From a virus, in IMG/VR virus record IMGVR_UViG_3300000553_000177: a stretch of 32,874 nt of DNA, one strand, 5' to 3'. How positions within the stretch are numbered: the stretch's first letter is position 1; the number at the start of each line of letters is the position of its first letter. The position numbers and the translations under genes were made by a program. This document shows positions 6,857 through 32,678 of this stretch, piece after piece. The notes under the pieces were generated by a model. It searched no databases. It saw nothing but the letters and a program-made list of their open reading frames with translations, and was not told where the DNA came from.

Positions 6857-6857
6857 A

Positions 6858-17077: not shown

Positions 17078-17101
17078 TAAGATTAATCATTTTTACAATT
17101 A

Positions 17102-17772: not shown

Positions 17773-18005
17773 AAATTATATTTTTTTACATCTCTTGAAA
17801 AATCTAATCTTTTTTTCAATTTTTTTAATTTTTCAATGATTTTTTCAATATCAATTTTTTCTAATGGAACTTTGCCGAAACCACTTATAGCCATATCTAA
17901 TATTATCATTTGTTCTCTAACTTTAGATGATAGTTTTTGAGTGATTTCATCATGCTCACTTCTATTAGATGGTTTAAATTTTTCATTGAATCTTTCTATT
18001 TTCAT
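17769..18005 (-). CDS. family A small protein (78 aa), MKIERFNEKF...VKKYNL
   Basis: ORF track; motifs. Confidence 0.6.
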   Translation of the reverse strand: MKIERFNEKFKPSNRSEHDEITQKLSSKVREQMIILDMAISGFGKVPLEKIDIEKIIEKLKKLKKRLDFSRDVKKYNL

Positions 18006-18232
18006 AAATTATATTTTTTTGCCTCCAAACGATTTTTTAATTCTTTCAATTTCTCTATTAAATTATCAATCTTATTGGAAGAAAGTTCATTTTCATCAAT
18101 ATTGAAATCTATTATAATATCTACCATATAAATATCCATTAAAATTATATCTGTTCTAATTTCATTTGCTAATTTTTGTAAATCTAAATCAAAATGAATT
18201 TCTGATTCATTAAATTTCCTAATTTTCATCAT
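18002..18232 (-). CDS. family A small protein (76 aa), MMKIRKFNESE...AKKYNL; a paralog of 17769..18005
   Basis: ORF track; shared ...IEKLKELKNRL / IEKLKKLKKRL segment. Confidence 0.6.
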   Translation of the reverse strand: MMKIRKFNESEIHFDLDLQKLANEIRTDIILMDIYMVDIIIDFNIDENELSSNKIDNLIEKLKELKNRLEAKKYNL

Positions 18233-18564
18233 AGATTATATTTTTTTGCATCTACTTCGTACTCTTCTATAAAATATCCAGAATCTAAACCTATAAAATG
18301 ATTATCATCCGTTAAAACTACAAAACATCTACCTGAAAGCATTACACCAGTTTCAAATTCAGCATACAACCTATATAATTTACCTTTAGTTAATTCCTTA
18401 GGTGCATCGTCATTACAATAAACATTTCTTAAAAACTTATCATTTTCAAGATTGAAAGGATTAAATTTTGTTTTAAGCCTAATTTGTTGCATAGATAGTC
18501 CTCTTGGACTTCTTTTAGATGATATTGCCTCATTTAAATTTTCATAATCAATCAAATGTTTCAT
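18229..18564 (-). CDS. family A small protein (111 aa), MKHLIDYENL...AKKYNL; the first gene of array 3
   Basis: ORF track; motifs. Confidence 0.6.
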   Translation of the reverse strand: MKHLIDYENLNEAISSKRSPRGLSMQQIRLKTKFNPFNLENDKFLRNVYCNDDAPKELTKGKLYRLYAEFETGVMLSGRCFVVLTDDNHFIGLDSGYFIEEYEVDAKKYNL

Positions 18565-18652
18565 ATTTTTAACAACTAATTTTTAATTTATCTATATATT
18601 AAAATCTAATATTATTTTTTTAATATATAGAAAAATTTTGTAACTTTGTGAC

Positions 18653-19087
18653 ATGAATAAAAATAAGTATAACCTCTTTATAGACGACGAGCGTTTTCCG
18701 AACAAAGATGTTCCGGCAAGTGATAGTGTTTTTCACCTTACAGGTGATAATAAATATCGAGATTTAAAATGGATAATTGTTAGAAATTTTGGAGATTTCG
18801 TTAAAATTATTGAAGAAAGAGGTTTACCGTTGAGGTGCTCGATGGACCATGATTTAAATGATTTTCATTATTATCATTATCAGACTTATACAGTATATAC
18901 AGGAAAAATTGATTATACAGTTGTTGAAGGTACAGGACTTGAATGTGCTAAATGGCTCATTAACTATTTGATGGATAATGATTTAGATGCACCCGAAATT
19001 TTGATACATACTCAAAATACCGTTGGTGCTGAGAATATAAGAATGTTATTTAACGATTATGAAAAATCAAGAATTATTACATTATAA
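18653..19087 (+). CDS. hypothetical protein (144 aa) whose N-terminus, MNKNKYNLFIDDE, carries a KYNL/junction-like sequence in plus orientation
   Basis: ORF track; AAAAATAAGTATAACCTCTTTATAGAC resembles the junction. Confidence 0.5.
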   Translation: MNKNKYNLFIDDERFPNKDVPASDSVFHLTGDNKYRDLKWIIVRNFGDFVKIIEERGLPLRCSMDHDLNDFHYYHYQTYTVYTGKIDYTVVEGTGLECAKWLINYLMDNDLDAPEILIHTQNTVGAENIRMLFNDYEKSRIITL

Positions 19088-19373
19088 AAATTTTTATATT
19101 GGTGATTATTTTATTATAATCACAACTCCTGGTATATGGAATAGTTCAATGAATAATAATTGTCCACTAAATAGTAATATATCTTATCCTTATAAAGGAA
19201 GAATTAAAAATATATTGGCAAGTCAAGTGTATGGAAAAGTAATAATAGGAATGACAGAAGGTATATATGGATGGTCTTTAAGTTATTTAGTAGGAAAAGG
19301 TTTAATTATTCATGATGTAATAAAACAAAGAAAAGTAAAATTAATGAAAATAAAACAAGATTATGAAAAATAA
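19059..19373 (+). CDS. family B small protein, tail KQRKVKLMKIKQDYEK (the likely start is the internal Met near 19149)
   Basis: ORF track; the 5' end overlaps the previous gene. Confidence 0.45.
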   Translation: MKNQELLHYKNFYIGDYFIIITTPGIWNSSMNNNCPLNSNISYPYKGRIKNILASQVYGKVIIGMTEGIYGWSLSYLVGKGLIIHDVIKQRKVKLMKIKQDYEK

Positions 19374-19437
19374 AGACATGTTAGGTGAAATTGGTGATAA
19401 ATAATTTGTTGGAATATTAATAAAAATCAAAAATAAA

Positions 19438-20061
19438 ATGAAAATTCGTTGTGGATTCGTTAGTAATAGTAGCAGCAGTTCATTTATCATAAATGCTATT
19501 GATGGTTTTTCAACCGTAAAAAATGTTGCTGAATATATTATGGATAATGTTAGTTATAAAAGCTATATAACTGAACGAAAAACTTTAGAAAGTATTGATC
19601 CTGATACACCAGTTCATTTCAACGTTGGTGGTGAAGAAACTTATATACGTAAAGTTGATAATAAAATAGTCATAGTAACAACACAAAATATTACTTTTAA
19701 TTTATTTCATGAAAAATGTCTTGATAAAAAAGACTTAACAGAAGATTTTTATAGACAATTTGATTTTATTGAATCAGATGAAGATTATCCTCTTGAAGAA
19801 GGTGAGGAATATGAAATAATTAAAATGGATGATCCTAGAAACTTTACATATTTCTATGGTAAATTTGATGATTTTAATATATTGAAATATAATATTCTTG
19901 GTAAACATACATACTTACAGAAGGGTTGTCCCAGATGCAAAACATCATTTGCATCTGGTTGGAGACTAAAAGGTGGGAGAAGAATTTGTGATTGTCAAGT
20001 ACAAAAATATAAAGACAGAATAACTAGGAAAGAAAAAATAATGAAAATCAATGAAAAATAG
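19438..20061 (+). CDS. family B protein (207 aa), MKIRCGFVSNSSSSSFI..., tail RKEKIMKINEK; a paralog of the next gene
   Basis: ORF track; N-terminus shared with 20051. Confidence 0.55.
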   Translation: MKIRCGFVSNSSSSSFIINAIDGFSTVKNVAEYIMDNVSYKSYITERKTLESIDPDTPVHFNVGGEETYIRKVDNKIVIVTTQNITFNLFHEKCLDKKDLTEDFYRQFDFIESDEDYPLEEGEEYEIIKMDDPRNFTYFYGKFDDFNILKYNILGKHTYLQKGCPRCKTSFASGWRLKGGRRICDCQVQKYKDRITRKEKIMKINEK

Positions 20062-20650
20062 AATAGGATTTGTAAGTAATTCATCTTCAAGTAGTTTTAT
20101 TGTTTTAAAAGATGCAATAACTGGTAAGCAAAAGGATATGATAGTAAATTTTTCAGAGTGGGCTAAATTTTTTATAGCACTTGATGAAGAAAAGAATTAT
20201 AAAGATGCTAAGGAATATGCAACTGAAATGGAATTATATCAAAGTGATGAATATTCAGAACAAAGTAACACTAGATTAAAATATAAATTTGAATATTATG
20301 ATGATGGATATTGGCATTTTGAAGAAACTGATGATTATATTTTTGGTGCAACCACAATGGACAATTTTGGAATGGACGAATATTTTAATTATATTAAAAT
20401 TGATCCTGATTATGTAAGATGGGATGAAGGTTGGAATGATGATCCATCACAAAAAGATCTTGAATTTATCAAAAATAAAAAACAAAGGTATCGTAAATAT
20501 AAATCGCGGTTGCAATTACTGGTGGTGAAGCTCGGTATGTCCTTAACAAGGAAACTGGTGAGATTACACTATTTGTTGGTCCAAAAATGTTTATTCCAGA
20601 TCCTCGCAAAGAAGTTATTGTTAAGAGGGTACTTGATGAGAAATCAGTAA
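20051..20650 (+). CDS. paralog of 19438 (MKNRIGFVSNSSSSSFIV...). The 3' ~150 nt of this ORF runs out of frame across the MVP fragment, so it is probably chimeric or disrupted
   Basis: ORF track; a second reading frame over 20503-20748 encodes an MVP repeat. Confidence 0.4.
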   Translation: MKNRIGFVSNSSSSSFIVLKDAITGKQKDMIVNFSEWAKFFIALDEEKNYKDAKEYATEMELYQSDEYSEQSNTRLKYKFEYYDDGYWHFEETDDYIFGATTMDNFGMDEYFNYIKIDPDYVRWDEGWNDDPSQKDLEFIKNKKQRYRKYKSRLQLLVVKLGMSLTRKLVRLHYLLVQKCLFQILAKKLLLRGYLMRNQ

Positions 20651-20748
20651 AATTATGGTTTCCTGATAGTATTGATGCAGCACAGCACAATAAACAATTA
20701 GAATCTGAAATGAATCTAAATGGAATGCTAGTGTATGTCCATTATTAA
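20503..20748 (+). pseudogene. isolated fragment of an MVP N-terminal repeat (81 codons, no start)
   Basis: ITGGEARYVLNKETGEITLFVGPKMFIPDPRKEVIVKRV matches the MVP repeat [27 protein letters not shown]; locally elevated GC. Confidence 0.5.
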
Positions 20749-20769
20749 TAAAAACAAGGTTAATTCTTT

Positions 20770-21054
20770 ATGAAAGATAATTATATAGTATGTTGTAAGA
20801 ATGTTGATGAATCGGTAAAGATTCATAAGTTTTTATTTTTGAATGGTATATATTGGAGGGATACAAGGGATGTTATTAGGAGTGGTACTAGATGGTTATG
20901 GTTAAGGATAAGTCAGGGACAAATACAAGCGTGTGGTGAGTCTTACAGATATTTAGATGGTTATTATGAGCATATTAATATATGTGATTACACATTTATA
21001 ACGGTAGATAAGTTAATGAGAAAATTAAAATTGCAGAGATTAAATGAGATATGA
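20770..21054 (+). CDS. family B small protein (94 aa), MKDNYIVCCKNVDES..., tail MRKLKLQRLNEI
   Basis: ORF track. Confidence 0.55.
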   Translation: MKDNYIVCCKNVDESVKIHKFLFLNGIYWRDTRDVIRSGTRWLWLRISQGQIQACGESYRYLDGYYEHINICDYTFITVDKLMRKLKLQRLNEI

Positions 21055-21374
21055 AGATAGATGTGAAGATTGGTGAGTTAGACAAGATGGCATATGATTT
21101 ATATGTTGATGCGACAATGAGAGCGAATAAAATATTATGTAAGAAGAACAAGTTGATATATGTCAAAGTTGATTTAATAACTGTTTTAAAGAAAGGTGAA
21201 TACTATGATATTACTTATCCAGTTGAAAGATTAGTTTGTGTAAGGTATGGTCCAGGTAAGCATGATATAATGTTATTTAATGACGGTTATTATGGTTATG
21301 AATCTATTTGGGAATATTTTTATACGGTAAAGGAATCAAGGAGAATGAAATTAAAAAGATTGTTGTTGATATGA
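21051..21374 (+). CDS. family B small protein (107 aa), tail ESRRMKLKRLLLI
   Basis: ORF track; ATGA overlap. Confidence 0.55.
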   Translation: MKIDVKIGELDKMAYDLYVDATMRANKILCKKNKLIYVKVDLITVLKKGEYYDITYPVERLVCVRYGPGKHDIMLFNDGYYGYESIWEYFYTVKESRRMKLKRLLLI

Positions 21375-21595
21375 TAAGAAAAGGACAAAAGGTTGTATTT
21401 GTGAGCACTATATTATCTCCCAGTTTGAGAGATATGATGCATTTAACTTATGATAAGGTTTATACGGTTACTACTGATTTTATTGAGGGGAACAATAATT
21501 ATTTACATCTTATTGATGATGCTCACCAAGATGTGGATTTTCTATTGATACATATAAATTTGAAAGATTATCAGAGTTTAGAAGAAAGAAATTAG
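21371..21595 (+). CDS. small protein (MIRKGQKVVFVS...). The start is taken at the ATGA overlap with the previous gene. The RRKKLEKLN tail is reached only after a frame change near 21575, so a frameshift or pseudogene is possible
   Basis: manual reading: AGAAGAAAGAAATTAGAAAAATTGAAT encodes RRKKLEKLN in another frame just before the next ATG. Confidence 0.35.
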   Translation: MIRKGQKVVFVSTILSPSLRDMMHLTYDKVYTVTTDFIEGNNNYLHLIDDAHQDVDFLLIHINLKDYQSLEERN

Positions 21596-21610
21596 AAAAA
21601 TTGAATTGTT

Positions 21611-22030
21611 ATGAACATATTTGAAAAGTTAAATGTTCCTGAGAACACTAATGGATTTATTAATAAGCAAGTGATATGTATAAAGGATAAGAAATTTATA
21701 TATGCACAGGTTAATAGTGAAAAGAAACCTTATAGATTAGTAAGGTGGAGATTTCTTGTTGGTAAAGAAAGTTTTATAAAGGATACTAGGAGATATAGAA
21801 TTGGTTCACTTATGAGGTGTTATGAACATAGTGCTATAAAGAGATTTATTAATAGATGTAGGAGAATATATTCTAATAAACTTGTATCAGATTATCCTTG
21901 GAAATGTGATATAATTGATAATAAAGGTCGGTTTATCATAATGAATTGTGAGAAAGCGTTAAAATATTTTCGAGTTGTTGATTTACAAGATATTAGGCAA
22001 AAGAAATTATTAAACTTGAAATCATTATAG
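21611..22030 (+). CDS. family B protein (139 aa), tail IRQKKLLNLKSL; its 3' end overlaps the 3' end of a convergent family A gene by 6 nt
   Basis: ORF track. Confidence 0.55.
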   Translation: MNIFEKLNVPENTNGFINKQVICIKDKKFIYAQVNSEKKPYRLVRWRFLVGKESFIKDTRRYRIGSLMRCYEHSAIKRFINRCRRIYSNKLVSDYPWKCDIIDNKGRFIIMNCEKALKYFRVVDLQDIRQKKLLNLKSL

Positions 22031-22330
22031 ATTATATTTTGTTGCATTGAGTTCTAATTCATATTCTTCTATTTCATCTTCATGTAGTTTTCTTTCTATT
22101 TGGTCATGTCTACACCATAGAGTTAGACCTTTACTAAATTGAACTGCGTAAGGTACATTACTATAATCATTATAAATTATTTTAGCACTTCTAGAATCTT
22201 CGAAAGATTTTAAAAATTCTCTCTTTATTAACACATAATCATCTACTTTATAATTAATAATATCTAGAAATTCTGGGTTCTCGTCATACCACCCTGCGGG
22301 AGATTCGTACATTTTTAAGTGTTTCATCAT
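22025..22330 (-). CDS. family A small protein (101 aa), MMKHLKMYESP...ATKYNL
   Basis: ORF track. Confidence 0.6.
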   Translation of the reverse strand: MMKHLKMYESPAGWYDENPEFLDIINYKVDDYVLIKREFLKSFEDSRSAKIIYNDYSNVPYAVQFSKGLTLWCRHDQIERKLHEDEIEEYELELNATKYNL

Positions 22331-22644
22331 AGATTATATTTTTTTGCATCTATTTTTATTTGTAATTCATCTAGAAGATCTTGAATATCATCTGATTGCA
22401 TAACAATATTATTTAATAAATTTTTTTCATCACAAGGTTGTGTTTCTTCATCATTATATTCATTTATAAGAACTAACCATGGTGTAAGAGTATATCTTTT
22501 TGCTATATAGTATTCTTTTTTATCATGTGCTGTAATTTCCCATATATAATACCAATACCATATAGTATCTTGTCCTATACTTTCTTCAAGTAGGAATTGT
22601 TTAGGCTTTATCTTCAGTTTCTCAAATAATTTAATATGTTTCAT
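22327..22644 (-). CDS. family A small protein (105 aa), MKHIKLFEKL...AKKYNL
   Basis: ORF track. Confidence 0.6.
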   Translation of the reverse strand: MKHIKLFEKLKIKPKQFLLEESIGQDTIWYWYYIWEITAHDKKEYYIAKRYTLTPWLVLINEYNDEETQPCDEKNLLNNIVMQSDDIQDLLDELQIKIDAKKYNL

Positions 22645-23009
22645 AAGTTATATTTTGCTGCATCTACATACATTTGTATGTCTTCTTTATTTTGAGAATA
22701 GTATGCTATATTATTTCTTGTAACATTTTCAGCAAAGTATTCTGTTGTATCATCTTTATAATTTCTGATAGTGAATTTAGATTCAAATTCTGGTGGCACA
22801 TATTCATATTGTACTATATATTTAGTTTTATTATTATCTGCTGGAAAAATATTAAATATTTGACCAATATTTGTATTTAGAAAATTTATAAATGCTGAAT
22901 TTGTTACTATATTATTAGTTTGTAAGATAACATAATCATCTATTTCTGGTAGTGAACCATGAACTTTATTCCATTTATTTTCATTTTCGTACAATTTAAT
23001 ATATTTCAT
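22641..23009 (-). CDS. family A protein (122 aa), MKYIKLYENENKWNKV...AAKYNL
   Basis: ORF track; its first 16 aa plus the junction are identical to those of 23214..23501. Confidence 0.6.
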   Translation of the reverse strand: MKYIKLYENENKWNKVHGSLPEIDDYVILQTNNIVTNSAFINFLNTNIGQIFNIFPADNNKTKYIVQYEYVPPEFESKFTIRNYKDDTTEYFAENVTRNNIAYYSQNKEDIQMYVDAAKYNL

Positions 23010-23501
23010 AGGTTATATTTTTTTGTTACCATGTGGATACTATTCTCTTCTAAGTATTTACGAATTTCATCACGATTTTTCTTAATATTTATTGGTTGAT
23101 ATTCATATCCAAAAATCGCTGTACTTGTTTTAGATTTCGGTGTTATTATATCCATTGTTGTATTATACTGAAAATTACCAAGAAATGGATCTGCATTGTA
23201 ATCAATTAAAATCTTAGCAACTAGCAGCACTCATTAAAGGAGTCCATTTACCTGTATCTTGAATATCTTCTGGATTTGCACCATGTTCTAACATATATTT
23301 TACAACTTCAAAATTATTCATTCTAGTCGCCCAATTTAATGTTCCACAAAAATTTGGATCAGCACCATTTTCAATTGCCAATTTAATTTTATCAAAATTC
23401 ATATACCATTTATCAGCACCTATTTTGAAATGTGTCCATGTTGCAGCATGAAGAACTTTATTCCATTTATTTTCATTTTCGTACAATTTAATATATTTCA
23501 T
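23006..23501 (-). pseudogene. ankyrin-repeat family A member split by a frameshift near 23214-23232 (ORFs 23214..23501 and 23006..23230)
   Basis: ANK consensus GADPNFCGTLNWA..., ...VVKYMLEHGANPEDIQDTGKWTPLMSAA, then LLVAKILIDYNADP in the other frame; ends ...TKKYNL. Confidence 0.5.
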
Positions 23502-23588
23502 AGGTTATATTTTTTTCTGTGGTATGCTGTGGTATAAAGTTCATAAATATATTTCTTACTTCGGTTGCTGGTTTTATATTTGTGAAAA

Positions 23589-24029
23589 TCACAAATTATA
23601 TTTTATTGCATCTACATATGTATCTACGTCTTCTTTATTGTGTGAGTAGAAGAATATATTTTCTTCTGGTATCCATCTTCTATATGTTATTTTTGAATTT
23701 TCTTTTCTAATATATCTTATACTATTATAAAGTCTTGCTGGAGTTGCTATGTTTTTTTCCCAAAAATATTCCTCAAACAAATATTTAAATTTTGGTGGCA
23801 CAGTATCATATTCTATTTGGTATGCATTTCTGTTATTTTGTTCGAAATTGTCTATCTTCTTGGTTATATTACATATATTAGTTCCTATAAATTTTTTGAA
23901 TTCGGGATCAAAAGAAGGTTCTAAAAGAGGATGGTCATTTTTATTTATAAGAGAAGATACGATGGCATAGTCATAAATTTGTGGTTTAGATTTATTTTTA
24001 TATTCATTTAATTTCATTAGGTATTTCAT
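23589..24029 (-). CDS. family A protein (146 aa), MKYLMKLNEY...AIKYNL; a hairpin overlaps its stop
   Basis: ORF track; hairpin GTGA-AAA-TCAC at 23582-23592. Confidence 0.6.
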   Translation of the reverse strand: MKYLMKLNEYKNKSKPQIYDYAIVSSLINKNDHPLLEPSFDPEFKKFIGTNICNITKKIDNFEQNNRNAYQIEYDTVPPKFKYLFEEYFWEKNIATPARLYNSIRYIRKENSKITYRRWIPEENIFFYSHNKEDVDTYVDAIKYNL

Positions 24030-24030
24030 A

Positions 24031-24318
24031 TTATAAATTATATTTATTTACATCTTCTATATATTCTAGTTCTTTTCTGTTTTTGGAGTATTCAATTATG
24101 TCTTCTCTTTTAAAATAAATAATTCTATTACCAGATACGATGGCATATTCGGGTGTATTATATGCTATATATCTTATTTTAATAATTTTTCCTATAATAA
24201 AATTAGATTTTTCACGGTACTGCCAAAGCACTCGGTCATCGTAAACGATAACATAATCATCAATTTGGGGTGGAGTTTCTTTTTTTTCGAATATAATAAA
24301 GGGTGTTATATGTTTCAT
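24031..24318 (-). CDS. family A small protein (95 aa), MKHITPFIIFE...VNKYNL
   Basis: ORF track. Confidence 0.55.
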   Translation of the reverse strand: MKHITPFIIFEKKETPPQIDDYVIVYDDRVLWQYREKSNFIIGKIIKIRYIAYNTPEYAIVSGNRIIYFKREDIIEYSKNRKELEYIEDVNKYNL

Positions 24319-24320
24319 TG

Positions 24321-24728
24321 TTATAGATTATATTTTAGAGTATCTCTCCATAGTTCAAAGTCATTTAGTTTATTTATAAAGTTAAAGGTTTCTGTGTATT
24401 TAAAATAAAAATCTTCACCATTATGGATTGGTAAAATCGTTTTCATAAATGTTACAAGGTCTTTCATTTGGTCACTATATGTTTTTGCATCATCGTTCAT
24501 TACGAATGATTTGAAATTTCTATTATCTGTTATTAATGTGCTTAATTTGTATTTTGAATTTGTAAAAACAATGGCGGCATATTCGTCACTTGTTTCTTTT
24601 TTTATTTCAAATTCAAATTCATTTGTAATTTCAATTATTTTTTCATATAGTTGTATTAGTAATGGATTTGTTTCATCATATGATAATTTTTCATAAACTT
24701 TTTGATAAATCGTTTTAATATATTTCAT
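24321..24728 (-). CDS. family A protein (135 aa), MKYIKTIYQK...TLKYNL; the first gene of array 4
   Basis: ORF track. Confidence 0.6.
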   Translation of the reverse strand: MKYIKTIYQKVYEKLSYDETNPLLIQLYEKIIEITNEFEFEIKKETSDEYAAIVFTNSKYKLSTLITDNRNFKSFVMNDDAKTYSDQMKDLVTFMKTILPIHNGEDFYFKYTETFNFINKLNDFELWRDTLKYNL

Positions 24729-24765
24729 TCATTTATATATAAAATTTTTATTTTAGGAAAAAGAG

Positions 24766-25026
24766 TTGTATATTTATTATATGGGAGTAATTTGTGAGAA
24801 TTATAGTAAATGTAAATTAATAGAAGGTTTTGGTCCTTTTGTTTGTAGACATCATTTTGAGCATGATTATCAAAATGCTTGTGATGTATCAAATTGTGGT
24901 TGGTTAAAACATATTTTGATAAATGATAAGTCATTAAAGATAAAGATTAATTATATTGCGGTTTGTGTAGATTATAATAGGTTAGTAAGGAAGGAAAAGT
25001 TAAAGAGGATTAATGAAAAATTATAA
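24766..25026 (+). CDS. Cys-rich family B small protein (86 aa), tail VRKEKLKRINEKL
   Basis: ORF track. Confidence 0.5.
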   Translation: MYIYYMGVICENYSKCKLIEGFGPFVCRHHFEHDYQNACDVSNCGWLKHILINDKSLKIKINYIAVCVDYNRLVRKEKLKRINEKL

Positions 25027-25280
25027 AAGGTAATTATATCATACAATGTAAGAATGTTGATGAATCTATAAAGGTTCAAAAAATTTTATTTTCTGTTGGT
25101 TCAATTGTTAATCTTAGGTATGGTTGGTTAAGAATAAGTGAATCTAAAATTATAGCGTTAGGAGAGCCTTACAAACATTTGTATTGTTTTTATATTAACA
25201 TTAAGAATTATAAATATATGACTGCTAATATGTTAATGCGGAAAATAAAATTGGAGAAGTTAAAATCAATTAATATATGA
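25013..25280 (+). pseudogene. paralog of 20770..21054 (KGNYIIQCKNVDESIKVQ...MRKIKLEKLKSINI) with an insertion of about 13 nt after ATGAAA that shifts the frame; no in-frame ATG
   Basis: manual translation; compare ATGAAAGATAATTATATAGTATGTTGTAAG (20769) with ATGAAAAATTATAAAAGGTAATTATATCATACAATGTAAG (25013). Confidence 0.45.
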
Positions 25281-25465
25281 AGAAGGAAAAGTTAATATGT
25301 GAGTATAGTGATAAGTGTACTGTTGGTGTTAAGTGTGTACATTATCTTGTACATGATAAGACAACAGGTTGTGGTCACTTTGGTTGTGATCAGGTGGATA
25401 ATGCAGTTTGTGTGAGTATTAAAGAGATAAGGAAGAGAAAGTTAGAGAAGTTAAATTCATTATAA
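25277..25465 (+). CDS. Cys-rich family B small protein (62 aa), tail IRKRKLEKLNSL
   Basis: ORF track; ATGA overlap. Confidence 0.5.
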   Translation: MKKEKLICEYSDKCTVGVKCVHYLVHDKTTGCGHFGCDQVDNAVCVSIKEIRKRKLEKLNSL

Positions 25466-25783
25466 ATTGTATTTATTAGCGTCAAGTCTCATTTCAACAT
25501 ATTGTACGGCTTCTTGTATATAATTAGTTTGAAAAACAATATTAATGACATTGGAGGGACAGCGAAAAGAAGTGTCATAATCAATTTTTTTTAGTTTGGT
25601 GTTTTTGTCAGGATAAAAGTCACAGTATAGTTTGGGCCAGGTTGAGTATCTTTTGATTATAATAAAATCATTATCTTCTGGTATAAATTTTAATATTTCA
25701 TATATATCAAAATGAGTTTCTACTTCTTCTTCTACTATAAATTTTTCATAATTAGAATTTTCGAATGTTTTTAAGTATTTCAT
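25460..25783 (-). CDS. isolated family A small protein (107 aa), MKYLKTFENS...ANKYNL
   Basis: ORF track. Confidence 0.6.
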   Translation of the reverse strand: MKYLKTFENSNYEKFIVEEEVETHFDIYEILKFIPEDNDFIIIKRYSTWPKLYCDFYPDKNTKLKKIDYDTSFRCPSNVINIVFQTNYIQEAVQYVEMRLDANKYNL

Positions 25784-25836
25784 AGAAATTATATATAAAA
25801 ATTTTTTATTAAATTATTTTTTATTATATTTAGATT

Positions 25837-26154
25837 ATGAAAATGTTTAAAATAGAAGAAGGTTTGGTATTATACTGTAAGAAGGACACTCATATTTTTA
25901 ATAAAGAAAAGATAAATAAAGGATCGGAGTGTAAAATTGTTGCAGTTCAAAGATCTACTATATTTTTTGATAACACTTGCCAAATAGATTATGATAAAAA
26001 GGGACTTGCTATAAGTATTAAGAAAAATGGATCTGATTTTTCTTTATTATTTATGAGCTTTAGGAGCTATGACTACGAGTATATTTGGGATCATTTTATA
26101 CTAGAGGAATTATATTTAAGGAAGCAAAAACTAAAAAGGCTGAGTAGTTTATGA
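25837..26154 (+). CDS. family B small protein (105 aa), tail LRKQKLKRLSSL
   Basis: ORF track. Confidence 0.55.
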   Translation: MKMFKIEEGLVLYCKKDTHIFNKEKINKGSECKIVAVQRSTIFFDNTCQIDYDKKGLAISIKKNGSDFSLLFMSFRSYDYEYIWDHFILEELYLRKQKLKRLSSL

Positions 26155-26176
26155 ACTATATTAATAAGGAAGAATT

Positions 26177-26776
26177 ATGAGAAAAATTAGTTTTTTTATT
26201 CGTAGTAATAATATTGAGGATTATAAAGAGTTTATAATCTTAGCTGATCGGTATGGGTTTAATACTAGTAATTTAGAAAATTTAAGAATAGATGATCAGG
26301 GAAAACTTTTTGTAAAAAAGTTTGGTGTTCGTTTCCAACCGATTGGAATTGGAATCATCAGTGATATACCTGATCATGTTGTGGACACAAAATTTGATCT
26401 ATGTTCAAGGGTTTTTTTGGCTTATGAAAATTATGACATTGCAAGGGAAGTATTAAAATCATCTGATATGGAAAAATATATTAGGATTTATAAACATAGA
26501 CTTAGAAAATTCAAACATCATATTCAAGGATTATTAAAAGATAAATTAAAGAAGTATCCATATTTTGAGATTGGTGAGGAGGTTTATAGTGACATGGATG
26601 TTAAATATCGTTGGATAAAAGAGTTGGGTTATACTTATTTTGTAATATTGGGTTATACTTATTTTAGTAGTGGTTGGGAAATAAGAACACAGAAAGGTTA
26701 TTCTTTTTTTGAGACTTTGAATCCTAGGTATAAGAAGAAAATTCGTAAGTATAAGTTGAAGAAAATTGGTTTATAG
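26177..26776 (+). CDS. family B protein (199 aa), tail IRKYKLKKIGL
   Basis: ORF track. Confidence 0.55.
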   Translation: MRKISFFIRSNNIEDYKEFIILADRYGFNTSNLENLRIDDQGKLFVKKFGVRFQPIGIGIISDIPDHVVDTKFDLCSRVFLAYENYDIAREVLKSSDMEKYIRIYKHRLRKFKHHIQGLLKDKLKKYPYFEIGEEVYSDMDVKYRWIKELGYTYFVILGYTYFSSGWEIRTQKGYSFFETLNPRYKKKIRKYKLKKIGL

Positions 26777-26784
26777 AATATTTT

Positions 26785-27090
26785 ATGATTTTAAAAATTG
26801 GAGATATAGTTAGGGTTAAATCAATCCAGTGGTATAACAAGAATAAAAAATATTGTGTACATGGTCCTGGCCCGTATGGATTTGTAGTCAAGAATACAAC
26901 AGTTAATTTTACAGACCATATGAGTACATATTGTGGTAAAATTGGTATCGTTGTTGGTTATTTACCTTTTGGTTATGATATTCAATTTGAAGATGAATCT
27001 CAATATTATCGTTACGTATGGACAAATGATATGTTGGATTTGGAGAAGTTAATACGTAAGAAAAAATTAGAAAAGATTAAAAAAATGTAA
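26785..27090 (+). CDS. family B small protein (101 aa), subfamily GD.V.VKS..WYNKNK, tail IRKKKLEKIKKM
   Basis: ORF track; paralog of 31249..31530 and 31791..32063. Confidence 0.55.
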   Translation: MILKIGDIVRVKSIQWYNKNKKYCVHGPGPYGFVVKNTTVNFTDHMSTYCGKIGIVVGYLPFGYDIQFEDESQYYRYVWTNDMLDLEKLIRKKKLEKIKKM

Positions 27091-27093
27091 AAT

Positions 27094-27393
27094 ATGAAAG
27101 TAAATGATATTATAATTTGCAAAAAAAATTATAAAATTTATAAAAAACATGCGAGATATAAAATCACAAATATAATTATCAATGATTCTATATTTCATCA
27201 AGATTGGATAGTATGTGGGGACGCAGGTATGCGAGCCCAGTTTGGTTTTGGTTTGCATTTTTCTTTGATAGAAGTAGAAAATTGTAATTATTTTTATAAT
27301 TATTTTTATACTTTGAAGGAATATCGTAAATTGAAATTAGGGAGAATAAATGAGAGTTCATTTAGAAATAAATGGAGAAAAATATGGTTTTAA
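27094..27393 (+). CDS. family B small protein (99 aa), tail YRKLKLGRINESS
   Basis: ORF track. Confidence 0.5.
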   Translation: MKVNDIIICKKNYKIYKKHARYKITNIIINDSIFHQDWIVCGDAGMRAQFGFGLHFSLIEVENCNYFYNYFYTLKEYRKLKLGRINESSFRNKWRKIWF

Positions 27394-27599
27394 TATGTGT
27401 ACATTCGGCTAAAGGTTTTACTATTGGTAAAATATATAATAACTTTAAAAATTCTCATGTGTCTGCGGATTTTTTTGTTGGCACTGATGATAACGGTAAA
27501 TCTATTTGGGCACTTAAAGAATATTTTACACCACTATCTTTACATAGAAAATTAAAATTAAAAAAATTAGATGGCATTAGTGAGAGCAAAGATCTATAG
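27372..27599 (+). CDS. family B small protein (75 aa), tail HRKLKLKKLDGISESKDL; converges on an orphan family A KYNL end motif
   Basis: ORF track; GATCTATAGATTATATTTTT is a palindromic Leu-stop junction. Confidence 0.5.
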   Translation: MEKNMVLICVHSAKGFTIGKIYNNFKNSHVSADFFVGTDDNGKSIWALKEYFTPLSLHRKLKLKKLDGISESKDL

Positions 27600-27718: not shown

Positions 27719-27928
27719 TTAATCACTACCTGCTTTGGATGCATTTATGTGTGATTCACTAAATCCGTGTGAAGAACTATGTGAACTTGAAGATGAATGT
27801 GAAGAAAATGAATGTGAAGATGAGGAAGAATGTGAAGAAGATGAACTGTGTCCACCGCCACCTCCTCTTGGAAAAAGGGGTGATGTAATCATAAACATAA
27901 ATGCAATAATAATACTAATTTTTTTCAT
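27719..27928 (-). CDS. secreted His/Ser-rich low-complexity protein (start taken at MKKISIIIAFMFMITSPLF)
   Basis: signal peptide, then G5-(HSSSSS)n repeats; the antisense Glu/Cys-rich ORF is a mirror artefact. Confidence 0.45.
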   Translation of the reverse strand: MKKISIIIAFMFMITSPLFPRGGGGGHSSSSSHSSSSSHSFSSHSSSSSHSSSHGFSESHINASKAGSD

Positions 27929-28159
27929 ATTGTTTTTTTTAAGTGAGTGAATATTAATTAAACATGATTGAATAAACAACAATAGTAACAACTGTTGTCA
28001 CGAACAAAATTGCAACAACTAGCTGCAAATTGCTAACCAAAACTTCCTTTTCTAATACATTTTTCATATTTGTTTTCGTTTATAATGCAAAGATAAGGAA
28101 AATTATTAAAAGAAAAAAAAATAAAAGGGAGTCTTTTGAACTCCCTTATAATAAGAACA

Positions 28160-28924
28160 TTAAATTTCTATTTGTTGAACAACCCAAAAATCACTTGCTA
28201 AATTTTTATTTGTCAAATAAGAATAAGGAATATAAAAATATCCTTTATCACCCCAACTTGTTCCCCAGCTATTCATTGTAATAAACCATTGTTTAGTATC
28301 ATCATATCCACAGCACATTACAGCGTGGCCACCGAGTATTGATTCATATGGTCCTGGCATTGGAACTATACCAGTTTTTGCTACAGAGTCACTTTCAAAT
28401 GATGAGTAAACAGTAAACCCATAAACAAAAGGAAATCCACTAGCAAGTGTACCTTTCATTTGATCTAAAGTTTGGGTAACCGCTTGATATTTAACTGCTT
28501 GATGTAATAACGCTTCTGTGTAGGATTTGGTTGTAGGTTTAGTTTTAAATTTACTTATAATATATGGCCATGTAGTTTCAGTACAAGCACCTTGTAGATT
28601 TAGTGTTTTAATACCATCACGAATTTCAGCACCTGCATCTTGTTTTACTGTTCCTTCAATAACTCTTTCATTATAATAAATAAATAGTCTTGATGGTTCA
28701 AATTGAATTTTAGATTTTTGTTTAATTTGATCAAAACGATGTGCAGCTGCGATTGCATTTGCAGTACATGATCCTAAATTTGATTGATCCACAACGGGTG
28801 GACAATTTGTTCTCAAATCAATTTTAGGTGGTAAAGATTTTAATATGCTTTCTGAGACTGTAAATTGATAATCTCTAAAATCTGGAATTTGTGGCTTCCA
28901 GCCATACCTTTGAATTTTTCTCAT
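28160..28924 (-). CDS. papain-like cysteine peptidase (C1 family), no signal peptide
   Basis: Q...GSC (DQSNLGSCTANAIAAA), His (GGHAVMCCGYDD) and Asn/Trp (NSWGTSWGDKGYFY) active-site motifs. Confidence 0.65.
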   Translation of the reverse strand: MRKIQRYGWKPQIPDFRDYQFTVSESILKSLPPKIDLRTNCPPVVDQSNLGSCTANAIAAAHRFDQIKQKSKIQFEPSRLFIYYNERVIEGTVKQDAGAEIRDGIKTLNLQGACTETTWPYIISKFKTKPTTKSYTEALLHQAVKYQAVTQTLDQMKGTLASGFPFVYGFTVYSSFESDSVAKTGIVPMPGPYESILGGHAVMCCGYDDTKQWFITMNSWGTSWGDKGYFYIPYSYLTNKNLASDFWVVQQIEI

Positions 28925-29032: not shown

Positions 29033-29441
29033 TTCTGGAGCATTAAAGAAGATGAAAAACAAGCAATTGAAAATCACTTATAAATTATATTTTTCTATAT
29101 CTCTTTGAAATGGATATGAAGTGGATAGGGTTTTTAAAGAAGTTGCTAGTGGAATGAATGATAATAGAAAAGAATTAAATAAATTACTTGAAATTAAATA
29201 TAAATATATAGTTATAGAACATAAAGATAGGTTAACTAGATTTGGCTTTAATTACTTGGAAACTTTATTGTTCAGACTAGGAACAGAAATAATAGTAATC
29301 AATAGGGATAGAGAAGATGAAACAGATTTAATTAAAGATTTTATATCAATTATCACATCATATTGCTGTAGATTATATGGAATGAGACGATGTGAAACAA
29401 AAAAAGAAAAAATATTAGAGGTAATAAATGATAACCATTAA
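29033..29441 (+). pseudogene. tnpA: IS607-family serine recombinase TnpA: an N-terminally truncated and disrupted remnant. The C-terminal ~105 aa are intact from a GTG at 29121
   Basis: NGYEVDRVFKEVASGMNDNRKELNKLL...IVIEHKDRLTRFGFNYLE...SIITSYCCRLYGMRR matches the IS607 TnpA C-terminal region. The upstream frame (..KEDEKQAIENHL*) is interrupted by a 20-25 bp junction-motif-like insert at 29079-29103. Confidence 0.6.
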
Positions 29442-30723
29442 ATTAAAATACAAATCCAACACTGATTTTCAGGATTTTCTTTCAAACCTTCAAAGACAAT
29501 TCTCCAATGTCTATAGATATAGTTATAATAGATTTTATGATGGTTTATCAAAAAAAGAAATTTACCACCTCATTCCATCTCTAAACAACGTAGAACTCAT
29601 TAAAGGTAGATTAATTAATGATTGTATTGATTTTGCTTACAGATTATATGAAAAAGATAAAAAATCAAACCATAAATCAATCTTCGGCGGTAAAAAGAAT
29701 TTCATCCTGAAATGTAAAGAAAAATTAACAAATGAACAATTTTCACAGAAAAGGTTAATATCGTTATATTTTCAAGGTGAAACTGCTAGATCAGGTAATA
29801 GAAATTTTAACCTTGATATCCTTAATAACACAATAACATTTAAATATAATAAACAATTCCATTTTGATTTATCTGTTAAACCATCTAAAAACCAACTAAA
29901 ACAATTAATCGAACTTCAGGATCTATGTAATCAAAAGAAATCAAAATTTACAATCACTTTAAGTCATGAATTTATTAATATTAGTTTTGAACCAACAAAG
30001 CATGAAGTGATTGATTTAATTGATGATAGGTTTGTTGGAATTGATTTAAATCCAACAAATATTGGAATGTCCATTTGTAATTCCAAGATGGAAGTGATTG
30101 ATAGTTATGATTTTGAATTCTCTGAAATCATAAACAAGATAAAAAAATCAAAGGTAGCAAGTAATTCCAAGGAAATGAAATATTTGAATAATAAATTGGA
30201 TTATGAAATATTGAATATAAGTAAAAAAATATCAGGCATATCCAAACATTATAAATGTAAATTTATATTTATAGAGGATCTAGAATTTAAAAGTAAAAAT
30301 GAATGGAATAACAGGTTATTAAAGAATTTATGGAAAAGAAATATTTTCATTCAGAATTTAGAAAAGAGATGTGGGATAGCCAATCAGAGGTTATTCAAGG
30401 TTAATCCGGCATATAGTTCATTTATAGGTAATTGTATGTATGATATTGTAGATCCTGTAAATTCTAGTATGGAAATTTCTAGAAGGGGTTATGAAATAAT
30501 AATAAATAAGTCAAAGAAATTTTATCCAGTAGTTTGGTTAAAAGAGTCATTAAAACACCAATGGAAGGAAAAGGTTAGTGATATACCAGATAGTTGGAAA
30601 GAGTTATTCGATTTAGTAAAAAACTTGAAATTGAGTTATCGAGTTTCATTAAAGGAGGATGTAAATGATTTTAATGTTTTTAGTAAAAAAGTTAGGATGT
30701 ATGATATTTATCAATTTTCTTGA
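29428..30723 (+). CDS. tnpB: IS607-type TnpB (OrfB / Fanzor-like RuvC nuclease), 431 aa
   Basis: RuvC-I GIDLNPTN, RuvC-II FIFIEDLEF and a later D in a degenerate zinc-finger region; position after tnpA; AGAGG 8 nt before the ATG. Confidence 0.6.
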   Translation: MITIKLKYKSNTDFQDFLSNLQRQFSNVYRYSYNRFYDGLSKKEIYHLIPSLNNVELIKGRLINDCIDFAYRLYEKDKKSNHKSIFGGKKNFILKCKEKLTNEQFSQKRLISLYFQGETARSGNRNFNLDILNNTITFKYNKQFHFDLSVKPSKNQLKQLIELQDLCNQKKSKFTITLSHEFINISFEPTKHEVIDLIDDRFVGIDLNPTNIGMSICNSKMEVIDSYDFEFSEIINKIKKSKVASNSKEMKYLNNKLDYEILNISKKISGISKHYKCKFIFIEDLEFKSKNEWNNRLLKNLWKRNIFIQNLEKRCGIANQRLFKVNPAYSSFIGNCMYDIVDPVNSSMEISRRGYEIIINKSKKFYPVVWLKESLKHQWKEKVSDIPDSWKELFDLVKNLKLSYRVSLKEDVNDFNVFSKKVRMYDIYQFS

Positions 30724-31154: not shown

Positions 31155-31248
31155 TTTGTTATATATAAATTTTTTTATTTTAAAAATATTTAATATATTT
31201 GTTTAATATGGAATATAAAGATATGGAATACGATTTTAAAGAAATTGA

Positions 31249-31530
31249 ATGAGTGCAGGATATAAATATAAGATAGGTGATGTTGTTTATATCAAAGATT
31301 TAAATTGGTTCAAAAAACATCAGGGATGGGAATTTGGTGTAATGTTTATCAGCAAATCTATGTTTGAACATTGCGGTAAAAAGGCAATTATCACTAATGA
31401 ATTTGGTGGTTATAAATATGTGGTAGATATAGATAATCGCCATATTTATGCTGAGAAAATGTTTGAAACATTACGAGATGTTAGAAAAAATAAATTAAAT
31501 AAATGGACTTCAGTAAGATACAACACATAA
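31249..31530 (+). CDS. family B small protein (93 aa), subfamily GDVVYIKDL.WF, tail VRKNKLNKWTSVRYNT
   Basis: ORF track. Confidence 0.5.
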   Translation: MSAGYKYKIGDVVYIKDLNWFKKHQGWEFGVMFISKSMFEHCGKKAIITNEFGGYKYVVDIDNRHIYAEKMFETLRDVRKNKLNKWTSVRYNT

Positions 31531-31805
31531 GTTTTACAACTGCTAAAGAGGCAGTTATAGTTGCTAAATTTCTTCAAAGCCTTGACTATAAGATTAAAAA
31601 AGAATATTTGAAAGAATCCTTCTATGAATGTAATTTACCTTTTGGTAATTTTGAAATTGCTCTTCTCTACTACTATTATGGATTCACTAAGCTTGGAAAC
31701 GGGGAATGGCGTTGTTCTAATGATGGTGGTGTTATATTTACATATTCAACAAAGGCTAAACATTTAATTAGAAGAGAAAAATTGAAAAGGTTAAACAGTT
31801 TGTAA
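31503..31805 (+). CDS. family B small protein (100 aa), tail IRREKLKRLNSL
   Basis: ORF track. Confidence 0.5.
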   Translation: MDFSKIQHISFTTAKEAVIVAKFLQSLDYKIKKEYLKESFYECNLPFGNFEIALLYYYYGFTKLGNGEWRCSNDGGVIFTYSTKAKHLIRREKLKRLNSL

Positions 31806-32063
31806 CTTTTTAAGTTTCATTTTTCTCATAGTTTTTAAATCATCCAACATATAATCTTGAAATACCCATTCATCACCTGCTATATCCAATAGGTAAAAAT
31901 CAGAATGGGCTGCTGTAACTTGTGCTCGCATGCCACAATACTGTTTCATTTCAGAAGTGAAACAATGTTGACCTTGCCGGCTAATACAATCATCAAAATC
32001 TTTGTTTTTATTATACCATTTCAAAGATTTTATAACAACAACATCACCCTCCTTGTATTTCAT
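31791..32063 (-). CDS. family B small protein (90 aa), MKYKEGDVVVIKSLKWYNKNK..., tail MRKMKLKKLQTV
   Basis: ORF track; paralog of 26785..27090. Confidence 0.55.
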   Translation of the reverse strand: MKYKEGDVVVIKSLKWYNKNKDFDDCISRQGQHCFTSEMKQYCGMRAQVTAAHSDFYLLDIAGDEWVFQDYMLDDLKTMRKMKLKKLQTV

Positions 32064-32367
32064 TTGTTATTTTTTTAAGTTTCTGCTTTCTAATAAGTTG
32101 TTCGTATGTAATCCTCTTATAATCAGTAATATCTGTGGCATTTTTAAATATGATATCCATATCTTTCATTGTCTTATATTTCATATCACAACTTTTACCT
32201 GTTAAAATATAAACATATTTCATATTTTTAAAAATTGATATGTTAAATTTTTTCAGTTGATGATTTCTTTGTAAATCATCCCAATAATAACCAAAACTAA
32301 ATAAATATTTTTGCAATTGAATAACATCAGAAACCTTTGTCTTTATTATAAGTTGTTTAAGTTTCAT
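32044..32367 (-). CDS. family B small protein (107 aa), tail IRKQKLKKITNEIQGG; a paralog of 12664..12981
   Basis: ORF track; shared LQKYLFSFGYYW segment. Confidence 0.55.
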   Translation of the reverse strand: MKLKQLIIKTKVSDVIQLQKYLFSFGYYWDDLQRNHQLKKFNISIFKNMKYVYILTGKSCDMKYKTMKDMDIIFKNATDITDYKRITYEQLIRKQKLKKITNEIQGG

Positions 32368-32678
32368 TTTATTTTAGTTTTAAGTTGCAATAATGCCTCT
32401 TTAATTGCTTCTTTGTCAAGATTATCAATGTTTTCAAGTAAAAAATCAATATCTATTTCTATAAGTTTTTTTAATTTGGCTTTTCTCTGTAATTTAAGAT
32501 TTTTCTTTTTATCTAAAATTGTTGGTGGTGCACTTTCTTCCTTTTCCTTTAATGGCGTAACATATCCACCACTACCCCAACCATAAAAACCTTTAACATT
32601 ATTTGCAGCGTGTTCTAATACTTCTTTAAAGGTGCCTTCAAAGTTGCCAAGAAACGCATTACTATGATGTCCACCCAA
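32364..32678 (-). CDS. protein with an internal family B-type segment (LKLQRKAKLKKLIEIDIDF) followed by an extra K/E-rich C-terminal domain. The N-terminal frame is open upstream (possible alternative start)
   Basis: ORF track; the in-frame upstream sequence ...GEDPNCDLGGHHSNAF has no ATG before a TAA at about 32753. Confidence 0.4.
   Translation of the reverse strand: MGGHHSNAFLGNFEGTFKEVLEHAANNVKGFYGWGSGGYVTPLKEKEESAPPTILDKKKNLKLQRKAKLKKLIEIDIDFLLENIDNLDKEAIKEALLQLKTKIK

Follow-up and report, generated by a model that had tools for sequence, protein, structure and literature searches.

The viral record IMGVR_UViG_3300000553_000177 of IMG/VR, a stretch of 32,874 nucleotides that was analysed at its full length and is called the window below, has 26% G+C and tightly packed small open reading frames (ORFs); a prominent part of these belongs to family B, a set of small proteins with a common basic C-terminal tail. 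The tail is a module of ~15 residues with the pattern [ST]-x-K-E-φ-R-K-x-K-L-x-x-[IL]-N, where φ stands for a hydrophobic residue. When the strict regular expression R[KR].KL.[KR][LI] was applied to the six-frame translation of the window, 25 matches were found, 23 of them located 2-9 residues before a stop codon; the corresponding chance level was 0.02 mean matches, with a maximum of 1, in 200 dinucleotide-preserving shuffles of the window, and 0.017 matches when residues were shuffled within the 81 best ORFs. The motif was terminal in 19 of the 21 matches within the gene set, although terminal sites make up only 9% of the possible motif positions; the motif and its enrichment at C-termini, as claimed in the original prediction, are therefore real, and random internal placement was not seen. 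Members are present in all of the ranges that had been named for them (9444-10473, 11914-12981, 14337-15253, 19059-22030, 24766-27599 and 31249-32678). Counting variants, which have His, Gln or Trp at single positions, together with decayed copies, the window contains ~30 family B members, including three frameshifted copies, one copy without ATG and one orphan remnant of 18 codons.

The fixed Arg is encoded in 346 tails from the window and its relatives by AGA (62%), CGT (18%), AGG (11%), CGA (7%) and CGG (3%), compared to a background of 64, 15, 13, 5 and 2% for the same codons; the fixed Leu uses TTA, TTG, CTT, CTA and CTG, i.e., both the TTR and CTN boxes, roughly at their background share. 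Since synonymous Arg and Leu codons follow background usage, selection acts on the protein; the motif is conserved at the protein level and not at the nucleotide level, in agreement with the earlier claim. The ATG of the next gene often sits within the last tail codons (for example, AAT GAA), yet 6 of 27 window tails are, by a reading of the ORF map, canonical without any co-directional downstream gene; these tails and the background codon usage argue against a nucleotide-level signal or an artefact of translational coupling. A compositional artefact of A-rich codons was rejected, by the shuffles and by tail-free AT-rich control loci: no tails occurred in ~80 kb (±20 kb; GC 24% and 32%) around the homologue of the window's MVP-like gene in the huge phages LR756500 and LR756501, and no C-terminal tails in 16 other gp23-type head loci (~260 kb, GC 23-32%).

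Family B genes and their neighbors in the window

The family B members of the window are given below by coordinates and strand. The letters O and M mark entries that were identified in the ORF list and by motif match, respectively; sequences introduced by "ending" are followed directly by the stop codon.

2946-3203 (-): variant ending FIEKYVHKKKLNNIKKED, with His replacing the fixed Arg; resembles the 'IE.Y-φ-RKKKL..IN' tails of relatives (O)
9444-9947 (-): N-terminal transmembrane anchor, ending EESIKELRKQKLDKLKEFGEKI (O, M); orthologues in related loci L009 and L015 have 42-45% overall identity and preserve the EWLESE..IKE.RKQKL tail
9999-10310 (-): SH3-like 'CKK' type, ending YFYDNQEIRRMKLKKLSEIF; β-rich body and helix 88-102 in AlphaFold2; close homologue P0014 (O, M)
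10291-10473 (-): 60 aa, ending ISLKEERKLKLKKIGYEQPNH (O, M)
11914-12453 (-): several hydrophobic (membrane) segments, ending DTLKEERKNKLEKLQKIMK; orthologues in L008, L009 and L015 (O, M)
12664-12981 (-): ending FLRKSKRKEKLTKINAR (O, M)
14391-14795 (+): ending CTTKELRKSKLNKLNKNVG; last tail codons contain the ATG of the next gene (O, M)
14495-14548 (-): orphan tail remnant of 18 codons, ending LDIKTNRRMKLERINNL, adjoining the rearranged MVP-like gene (M)
14785-14997 (+): 70 aa, ending ISMIRKLKLKKIEKSKN (O, M)
14978-15279 (+): frameshifted; body ORF 14978-15253, tail ending ISLQQERKIKLKKINFL in another frame, from 15226 to the stop codon at 15277-15279 (M)
19059-19373 (+): ending DVIKQRKVKLMKIKQDYEK (O, M)
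19438-20061 (+): 207 aa, GFVSNSSSSSF-type body, ending DRITRKEKIMKINEK; N-terminus matches phrog_7397, of unknown function (O, M)
20051-20650 (+): GFVSNSSSSSF paralogue that has lost its tail and runs into a displaced fragment of the MVP-like gene; its L009 orthologue (7899-8321) is still found ending KQKYRKKKIDKINNTDNEL
20770-21054 (+): KNVDES type, ending VDKLMRKLKLQRLNEI (O, M)
21051-21374 (+): SH3-like 'CKK' type, ending YFYTVKESRRMKLKRLLLI (O, M)
21371-21624 (+): frameshifted; body starting MIRKGQKVVFVS, tail in another frame, ending ERLSEFRRKKLEKLNCYEHI (M)
21611-22030 (+): variant of 139 aa, ending VDLQDIRQKKLLNLKSL, without a co-directional next gene (O)
24781-25026 (+): Cys-rich, ending YNRLVRKEKLKRINEKL (O, M)
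25030-25256 (+): KNVDES type without ATG start, probably decaying, ending ANMLMRKIKLEKLKSINI (M)
25277-25465 (+): Cys-rich, 62 aa, ending VSIKEIRKRKLEKLNSL; converges on a minus-strand gene and has no downstream gene (O, M)
25837-26154 (+): SH3-like 'CKK' type, ending ILEELYLRKQKLKRLSSL (O, M)
26177-26776 (+): 199 aa, ending RYKKKIRKYKLKKIGL (O, M)
26785-27090 (+): GD.V.VKS..WYNKNK type, ending DLEKLIRKKKLEKIKKM; SH3-like barrel and C-terminal helix 87-100 in AlphaFold2 (O, M)
27094-27393 (+): SH3-like 'CKK' type; tail YFYTLKEYRKLKLGRINES stops 14 residues short of the stop codon; L015 orthologue 37% identical (O, M)
27372-27599 (+): 75 aa, last gene of its array, ending PLSLHRKLKLKKLDGISESKDL (O, M)
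31249-31530 (+): variant, ending ETLRDVRKNKLNKWTSVRYNT (O)
31503-31805 (+): ending AKHLIRREKLKRLNSL; 3' end overlaps the convergent 31791-32063 by 15 nt (O, M)
31791-32063 (-): GD.V.VKS..WYNKNK type, ending DDLKTMRKMKLKKLQTV (O, M)
32044-32367 (-): ending YEQLIRKQKLKKITNEIQGG (O, M)
32364-32678 (-): internal motif, NLKLQRKAKLKKLIEIDID, 32 residues ahead of the stop codon (O, M)

Both of the membrane proteins to which the tail had been attributed (9444-9947 and 11914-12453) thus end in it. The decaying copies, i.e., those that are frameshifted (14978-15279 and 21371-21624), lack an ATG (25030-25256), have lost the tail (20051-20650) or retain nothing but the tail (14495-14548), indicate rapid gene birth and death within the arrays. 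Terminator-like G+C-rich hairpins with a T run follow the stop codon of 11914-12453 (~11880-11913; CCCTTCGGAGG TTTTTTTT, coding strand) and that of the MVP-like gene (~13000-13045; AAAAACCATCTCTGATGGAGATGGTTTTT).

A second family, family A, occupies minus-strand regions of the window (197-8573, 15707-18564, 22025-24728 and 25460-25783); 27 of its ORFs end in [KR]-Y-N-[LMIV], mostly K-Y-N-L, and at least 13 start with MK[YH][LI]K[LT][YF]E. The family A N-terminus (MKYIKTYENF) loosely resembles the peptide MKTYQEFIAE of phage T4 and includes a φ-x-E site; its C-terminal module ('EE-I-E-x-Y ... A-K-K-Y-N-L') is acidic, in contrast to the basic family B tail. The two families occur together in L008, L009 and L015, the loci most closely related to the window; family A was absent from the fetched stretches of L010, L013 and L014.

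Other genes of the window encode a papain-family cysteine peptidase (Peptidase_C1, E 8.5e-16; 28160-28924, minus strand), a stand-alone response-regulator receiver domain (15311-15667, minus strand), a cREC_REC (cyclic-phosphate processing receiver) protein (18653-19087, plus strand), and a 90-aa ORF (27719-27991, minus strand) with a hydrophobic N-terminal segment, a Gly run and repeated Ser/His (HSSSSSHSSSSSHSFSSHSSSSSHSSSHG). At 29121-30723 on the plus strand, an ORF of 106 aa precedes and overlaps one of 431 aa, which has no Pfam match at E<=0.01; this layout resembles the resolvase fragment plus TnpB of IS607/IS605-type elements; clear OrfB_IS605/Cas12f-like TnpB genes adjoin the tail arrays in L014 and L018. 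The near-palindrome TTATATATAAA is found 3-8 nt upstream of the first minus-strand start codon of several runs, within short divergent intergenic regions (24732-24743, 25788-25799, 31158-31169, 15670-15681, 2017-2028 and 8581-8591); with one mismatch allowed, 29 matches were observed vs. 16 expected, and the sequence may represent a promoter or translation-initiation element. Scans of the window for tRNAs and Rfam families found nothing.

Phage clade and genomic setting

The window represents part of the genome of a huge, AT-rich phage that possesses T4-type genes. The stretch recurs in independent JGI, ENA and Logan metagenome assemblies (contigs of ~7-32 kb), and its MVP-like protein (428 aa; 13074-14360, minus strand; Pfam MVP_shoulder and Vault_3) retrieved, in a tblastn search of 50,697 GenBank phage records, only LR756500 (462 kb) and LR756501/LR756503 (735 kb), at 47-51% identity. 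Phage genomes larger than 634 kb are reported to fall within the 'Mahaphage' clade, with predicted hosts among the Bacteroidetes (Al-Shayeb et al., 2020; PMC7162821); the tail-bearing clade is probably related to the Mahaphages and probably infects Bacteroidetes. Genes found on related contigs include those for RtcB, Hsp70, a GIY-YIG endonuclease, TnpB and a type II topoisomerase, the latter with its best match in LR756501 (51.6% identity), followed by T4-like and jumbo phages; in L035, a Gp23-family major capsid protein (Pfam E 4.8e-32) is encoded ~4 kb from a canonical tail gene, together with a Rad50-like gene. In a 330-kb contig (L025, 13367-18338), the topoisomerase is split into ORFs of 599 and 634 aa; a Hint (intein) domain starts at the end of the first, and an opposite-strand ORF of 285 aa lies between them. 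Overlaps of 4-28 nt connect genes over long stretches of the same orientation, an arrangement expected of a prokaryotic virus. The host-associated bacterial origin implied by the original prediction has to be abandoned, since the MVP-like gene matches, within the phage collection, only the huge phages LR756500/LR756501 and since the relatives carry T4-type genes. Hsp70, RtcB, MVP and topoisomerase II had also prompted consideration of a nuclear localisation signal (NLS) of a eukaryotic giant virus; this possibility was set aside in view of the topoisomerase matches to huge and T4-like phages, the Gp23-family capsid protein and the operon-style overlaps.

The tail is restricted to one clade of AT-rich huge phages. 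Nine IMG/VR loci that were reached through the MVP-like gene (71-77% identity) carry 1-22 motif matches per 14-21 kb, nearly all of them C-terminal. A search of 1.84 billion representative proteins with a HMMER tail profile gave only 13 matches at E<=0.001, in proteins of 46-172 aa with the tail at the C-terminus or, in two fusions, at the end of each domain; a 27-kb contig reached from one of these matches holds ~37-40 tail genes in 14 kb, on one strand and with overlaps of 11-17 nt. Pattern scans contributed seven further IMG/VR loci, including two separate regions of one 330-kb contig, and 36 metagenome loci, the densest of which has 38 tails in 20 kb; array density reaches 37-38 tails per 18-20 kb, and ~470 distinct tail proteins were collected altogether. 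Same-sample contigs of 330 and 168 kb probably represent one phage with at least three separate tail regions. No relative of the tail proteins was found in 185,579 bacterial and archaeal genomes (GTDB, one per species), and tblastn searches with three members found no match in the 50,697 GenBank phage records; a word-index homologue search with one member retrieved only the query itself, and the same type of search with the tail alignment yielded nine proteins, all from the same clade.

The MVP-like gene has a length of 803-819 aa in relatives; the window lacks residues 1-317, and the remnants correspond to residues 318-389 at 20506-20721 (plus strand) and residues 391-798 at 14333-13104 (minus strand). 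This split indicates a deletion of the first 317 residues and an inversion of ~14334-20721 (~6.4 kb); the layout upstream of the gene is identical in independent assemblies. The possibility that the tail is a cargo tag for the neighboring MVP-like (vault/SPFH-type) cage was considered and rejected, since the gene is broken yet ~27 tails are intact, since the LR756500/LR756501 gene has no tails within ±20 kb, and since tail arrays are also found far away from it; the tail is probably not a cargo tag of the MVP-like protein.

The predicted tail helix, its carriers and its possible partner

The consensus of 147 distinct tails, aligned on the fixed Arg, reads Y/F(-8) F(-7) Y(-6) T/S(-5) x K(-3) E(-2) φ(-1) R(0) K(+1) x K(+3) L(+4) x K(+6) I/L(+7) N(+8); as these tails were picked by a regular expression that fixes positions 0, +3, +4 and +7, conservation at these four positions is partly by construction. 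The stop codon usually follows 3-6 residues beyond position +7, and the distance from the tail to the C-terminus spans 1-14 residues. The frequencies of Ser/Thr(-5) and Glu(-2) in the 147 tails fit a helix capping box, and positions -4, 0, +3, +4, +7 and +11 share one face of a helical wheel; the string [LIV]-K-E directly ahead of the Arg in about half of the tails resembles a φ-x-E site, but fits the capping box as well. AlphaFold2 models of 26785-27090 (mean pLDDT 71.5) and 9999-10310 (mean pLDDT 65) combine a β-barrel body with a terminal helix, at residues 87-100 and 88-102, respectively, which in both models covers exactly the tail and has the highest local confidence of the protein (pLDDT ~75-85). 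On the basis of these models, the tail is predicted to form a single α-helix of fixed register. In the two-domain fusion proteins P0015 and P0016, a tail follows each domain, and these internal copies indicate that the tail does not need a free C-terminus. The tail is not described by any curated family, solved structure or paper found, consistent with the earlier failure to match it to a known motif: no Pfam family (195 members scanned) and no PHROG family (5 members scanned) covers it, the best match in a search of the Protein Data Bank (PDB) with the tail profile was HRas helix α5 (E~1, not significant), and the literature on motifs of this type or on vault proteins in phages yielded nothing relevant.

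The original prediction had compared the tail to C-terminal translocation signals of type IV or other secretion systems. A positively charged C-terminal tag common to diverse small proteins is what such a signal would look like; in this case the carrier is a phage genome, no secretion-system component was found when the larger proteins of the window and ~30 large ORFs from related loci were scanned against Pfam, homologues are absent from the 185,579 bacterial and archaeal genomes, and the tail is a predicted helix of fixed register that can be internal. A secretion signal is thus a barely credible reading, the least probable of those weighed here. Recognition by a protease, unfoldase or chaperone, as a ClpX-type basic degron or as a client signal for the phage Hsp70, would provide a means to time or limit early proteins; it would be in keeping with a basic motif near the C-terminus, with the tail genes on both sides of the phage Hsp70 gene in L021, and with the papain-family peptidase gene of the window (28160-28924). 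ClpX-type basic C-terminal degrons use a free terminus, however, and binding by DnaK-type chaperones depends on 4-5 residues that form a hydrophobic core. Since the distance of the tail to the C-terminus varies between 1 and 14 residues, internal copies exist, and a DnaK-type core is missing, this function appears improbable.

The tail is strongly hydrophilic, with a mean hydrophobicity of -0.49 and a mean hydrophobic moment of 0.20, and carries a net charge of +3 over 15 residues, which renders otherwise near-neutral bodies basic. A C-terminal helix with Lys/Arg and spaced Leu/Ile could suggest membrane targeting of the MinD/FtsA type; yet the hydrophobicity and the moment are both below those of the reference membrane-targeting sequences used for comparison, and 17 members are already anchored by transmembrane segments, which makes a membrane-targeting amphipathic helix highly improbable. 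The same charge, on near-neutral bodies, would suit a basic helix that tethers proteins to DNA, RNA or ribosomes of phage or host, possibly with passive co-packaging: the best Foldseek matches in the PDB are ribosomal proteins with an SH3 domain and a basic helix (eL21-type) and Spt5 KOW (E ~0.03), and the internal proteins of phage T4 are highly basic, with lysines that contact DNA (PMC3012670). Non-specific phosphate contact requires neither the fixed Leu(+4) and Ile/Leu(+7) nor an invariant Arg-x-x-Lys register, the fold matches are weak, and Pfam scans of the members found no known nucleic-acid-binding domain; nucleic-acid binding is therefore regarded as an unlikely function, if a more plausible one than proteolytic recognition or membrane targeting.

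The bodies that carry the tail had been called unrelated, and this description is correct in part. After removal of the tails, BLAST links only two small groups among the window bodies, and 446 bodies from relatives fall into 203 BLAST clusters, 165 of them singletons; 17 bodies have membrane segments, 9 have at least two CxxC pairs, and zinc-ribbon, helical ('IENYLRKKKLEIINKK') and GFVSNSSSSSF bodies are among the types. The largest cluster, in contrast, comprises 176 of the 446 bodies (39%) and represents one SH3-like superfamily with the typical start MKVGDK..CKK and the final strand YFYT; its window members are 9999-10310, 21051-21374, 25837-26154 and 27094-27393. Fold searches with the better of the two models found, with weak scores, only SH3-like proteins (Mind bomb repeats, ribosomal eL21-type proteins, Spt5 KOW and uncharacterised phage proteins). 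The one clear Pfam match among 195 members is a Tad3 homologue of 205 aa in L057 (E 2.8e-23), in which an extension and then the tail follow; Tad3 is annotated as an inhibitor of type I Thoeris defence. The tail is thus at once the conserved terminus of a large set of paralogues and a module that non-homologous proteins carry.

This dual nature bears on the possibility that the helix is structural or oligomerising, in the sense that it caps or pairs the barrel of one explosively diversifying SH3-like family and spread by fusion and recombination within overlapping tandem arrays, without any role as an address. The dominant superfamily (39% of bodies, MKVGDK..CKK) has its strand YFYT directly before the helix, each domain of the fusions P0015 and P0016 retains its own helix, the fold matches are SH3-plus-helix proteins, and the best PDB match, although not significant, is the last helix of HRas, a purely structural element (FYTLVREIRQHKL). 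Yet the same Arg/Lys/Leu register recurs on bodies that are not SH3-like, i.e., on transmembrane anchors, helical bodies ('IENYLRKKKL'), zinc ribbons and the Tad3 homologue; a helix engaged in packing or in a coiled coil would seldom have fixed Arg and Lys in its core; and the hydrophobicity of -0.49 and net charge of +3 do not suit such a helix. A structural helix is considered rather unlikely, although the most plausible of the rivals.

The same Arg-x-x-Lys-Leu-x-x-Ile/Leu face on unrelated bodies, in a helix too hydrophilic to pack into a core, suggests docking onto a common partner. The best overall explanation, held tentatively and at somewhat less than an even chance, is that the tail is a portable C-terminal docking helix on hundreds of fast-evolving small accessory proteins of AT-rich huge phages; as an address tag, it would dock all of its carriers onto one common, probably acidic receptor. 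A packaging, nucleic-acid-binding or recognition tail, which the original prediction had offered as its secondary suggestion, comes close to this explanation and is viable. By analogy to better-known phages, the receptor could be the interior of the procapsid during assembly, or the scaffolding core of the procapsid, where varied small host-takeover and counter-defence proteins would be pre-loaded and later injected with the DNA; a huge T4-type capsid would offer very many equivalent inner sites, suited to a very large repertoire of cargo at low copy number. Tad3, the only body with an annotation, acts in counter-defence and is cited in favor of capsid loading. This specific form of the docking hypothesis, in which the helix would load tens to more than 100 small proteins per genome, counter-defence proteins included, onto acidic procapsid sites for injection with the DNA, is possible and, as an argument by analogy, remains doubtful.

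Several observations weigh against docking and capsid loading. No head gene was found in the window or in the fetched stretches of its closest relatives; the protease-scaffold protein of the nearest readable head module (L063) does not carry the tail. The T4 late promoter TATAAATA is not enriched (16 observed vs. 15 expected). One SH3-like superfamily accounts for about 40% of the bodies, so part of the pattern reflects ordinary paralogy, and the 17 tail proteins with membrane segments would be awkward as capsid cargo. The likeness to the scaffolding protein of phage P22, discussed below, consists of five residues in Lys-rich context and is not significant, and the PDB search with the tail profile misses this protein (gp8) at E<=10. 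Finally, the broken MVP-like gene also shows that gene neighborhood has little predictive value in this case.

Knowledge of huge phages comes almost exclusively from metagenomes, and the majority of their genes lack a functional assignment; in this setting, one short motif connects ~470 uncharacterised proteins and identifies whole genomic regions as a single functional class. If the tail is indeed an address label, it would explain how a very large and fast-changing set of small effectors is deployed, such effectors could be found by scanning for the tail, and a portable peptide for loading cargo into large capsids would be a possible tool. If the partner is a different one, an invariant interface shared by hundreds of proteins would nevertheless indicate that the infection cycle has a central hub.

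Comparison with known systems

Cargo peptides of encapsulins and bacterial microcompartments share the logic proposed here, a short terminal peptide that docks diverse cargo to the inside of a shell, which has the HK97 fold in encapsulins. However, the peptides of encapsulins have an extended conformation with many Gly, Ser and Leu residues, and microcompartment peptides are hydrophobic amphipathic helices, in contrast to the highly charged family B tail; no shell family of either type was found among the Pfam matches of the scanned proteins from the window and related loci. Type IV secretion signals (Dot/Icm, VirB/D4) are, like the tail, C-terminal, often positively charged and found on diverse carriers; they are disordered, compositional, apparatus-dependent and bacterial, unlike a predicted helix of fixed register in a phage. 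R-K-x-K-L also formally fits a monopartite NLS (K-K/R-x-K/R; c-Myc KRVKLD); unlike an NLS, the tail is helical with fixed hydrophobic positions, and the host of the family B phages is a bacterium, as indicated by a phage element with overlapping, operon-like genes.

A closer parallel is found in the P22 scaffolding protein gp8, which ends in DVETYRKLKAKLKGIR; its residues R293 and K296 bind D14/E15/E18 of the coat N-arm, and Y292 contacts R101 (PMC9965877). The C-terminal helix of gp8 (~283-303) and the family B tail are both C-terminal and basic; the gp8 string Y-R-K-L-K is identical to that in many tails, the Y/φ-R-K-x-K spacing is common to both, and R293/K296 (i, i+3), which form salt bridges with the acidic coat N-arm patch, correspond to the invariant Arg and Lys of the tail. 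On the other hand, gp8 forms a helix-turn-helix whereas the tail is modelled as a single helix, gp8 has no counterpart of Leu(+4) and Ile/Leu(+7), and it is one scaffolding protein whereas the tail is a tag on hundreds of proteins.

The internal-protein locus of T4 provides the precedent at the level of the whole system. The T4 capsid-targeting sequence is MKTYQEFIAE, and ~1000 internal protein copies are packaged (PMC8442874). In T4 as in family B, a short conserved terminal peptide is the sole shared part of unrelated, fast-evolving small proteins, some of which act in counter-defence (IPI* in T4, the Tad3 homologue here); the tail-bearing clade also has T4-type genes, such as those for the Gp23-family capsid protein in L035 and for topoisomerase II in a related contig. 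Like the T4 peptide, the tail is the only shared element of a hypervariable locus (203 clusters and 165 singletons among 446 bodies, with the window bodies mostly unlinked); an N-terminal MKTYQEFIAE-like peptide of ~10 residues is not part of family B. The T4 peptide sits at the N-terminus, is not basic and is cut off by the prohead protease, in contrast to the C-terminal, basic and helical family B tail, and family B, at tens to probably >100 genes in each genome, is on a far larger scale than its T4 counterpart. If capsid loading applies, the tail would represent a second, C-terminal type of capsid-targeting signal, independent of that in T4, and might act beside a T4-like N-terminal signal of family A. 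A short terminal peptide common to hypervariable phage accessory proteins is thus known from T4; the family B tail differs from it in sequence, in lying at the C-terminus, in scale and in being confined to one clade of uncultured huge phages.

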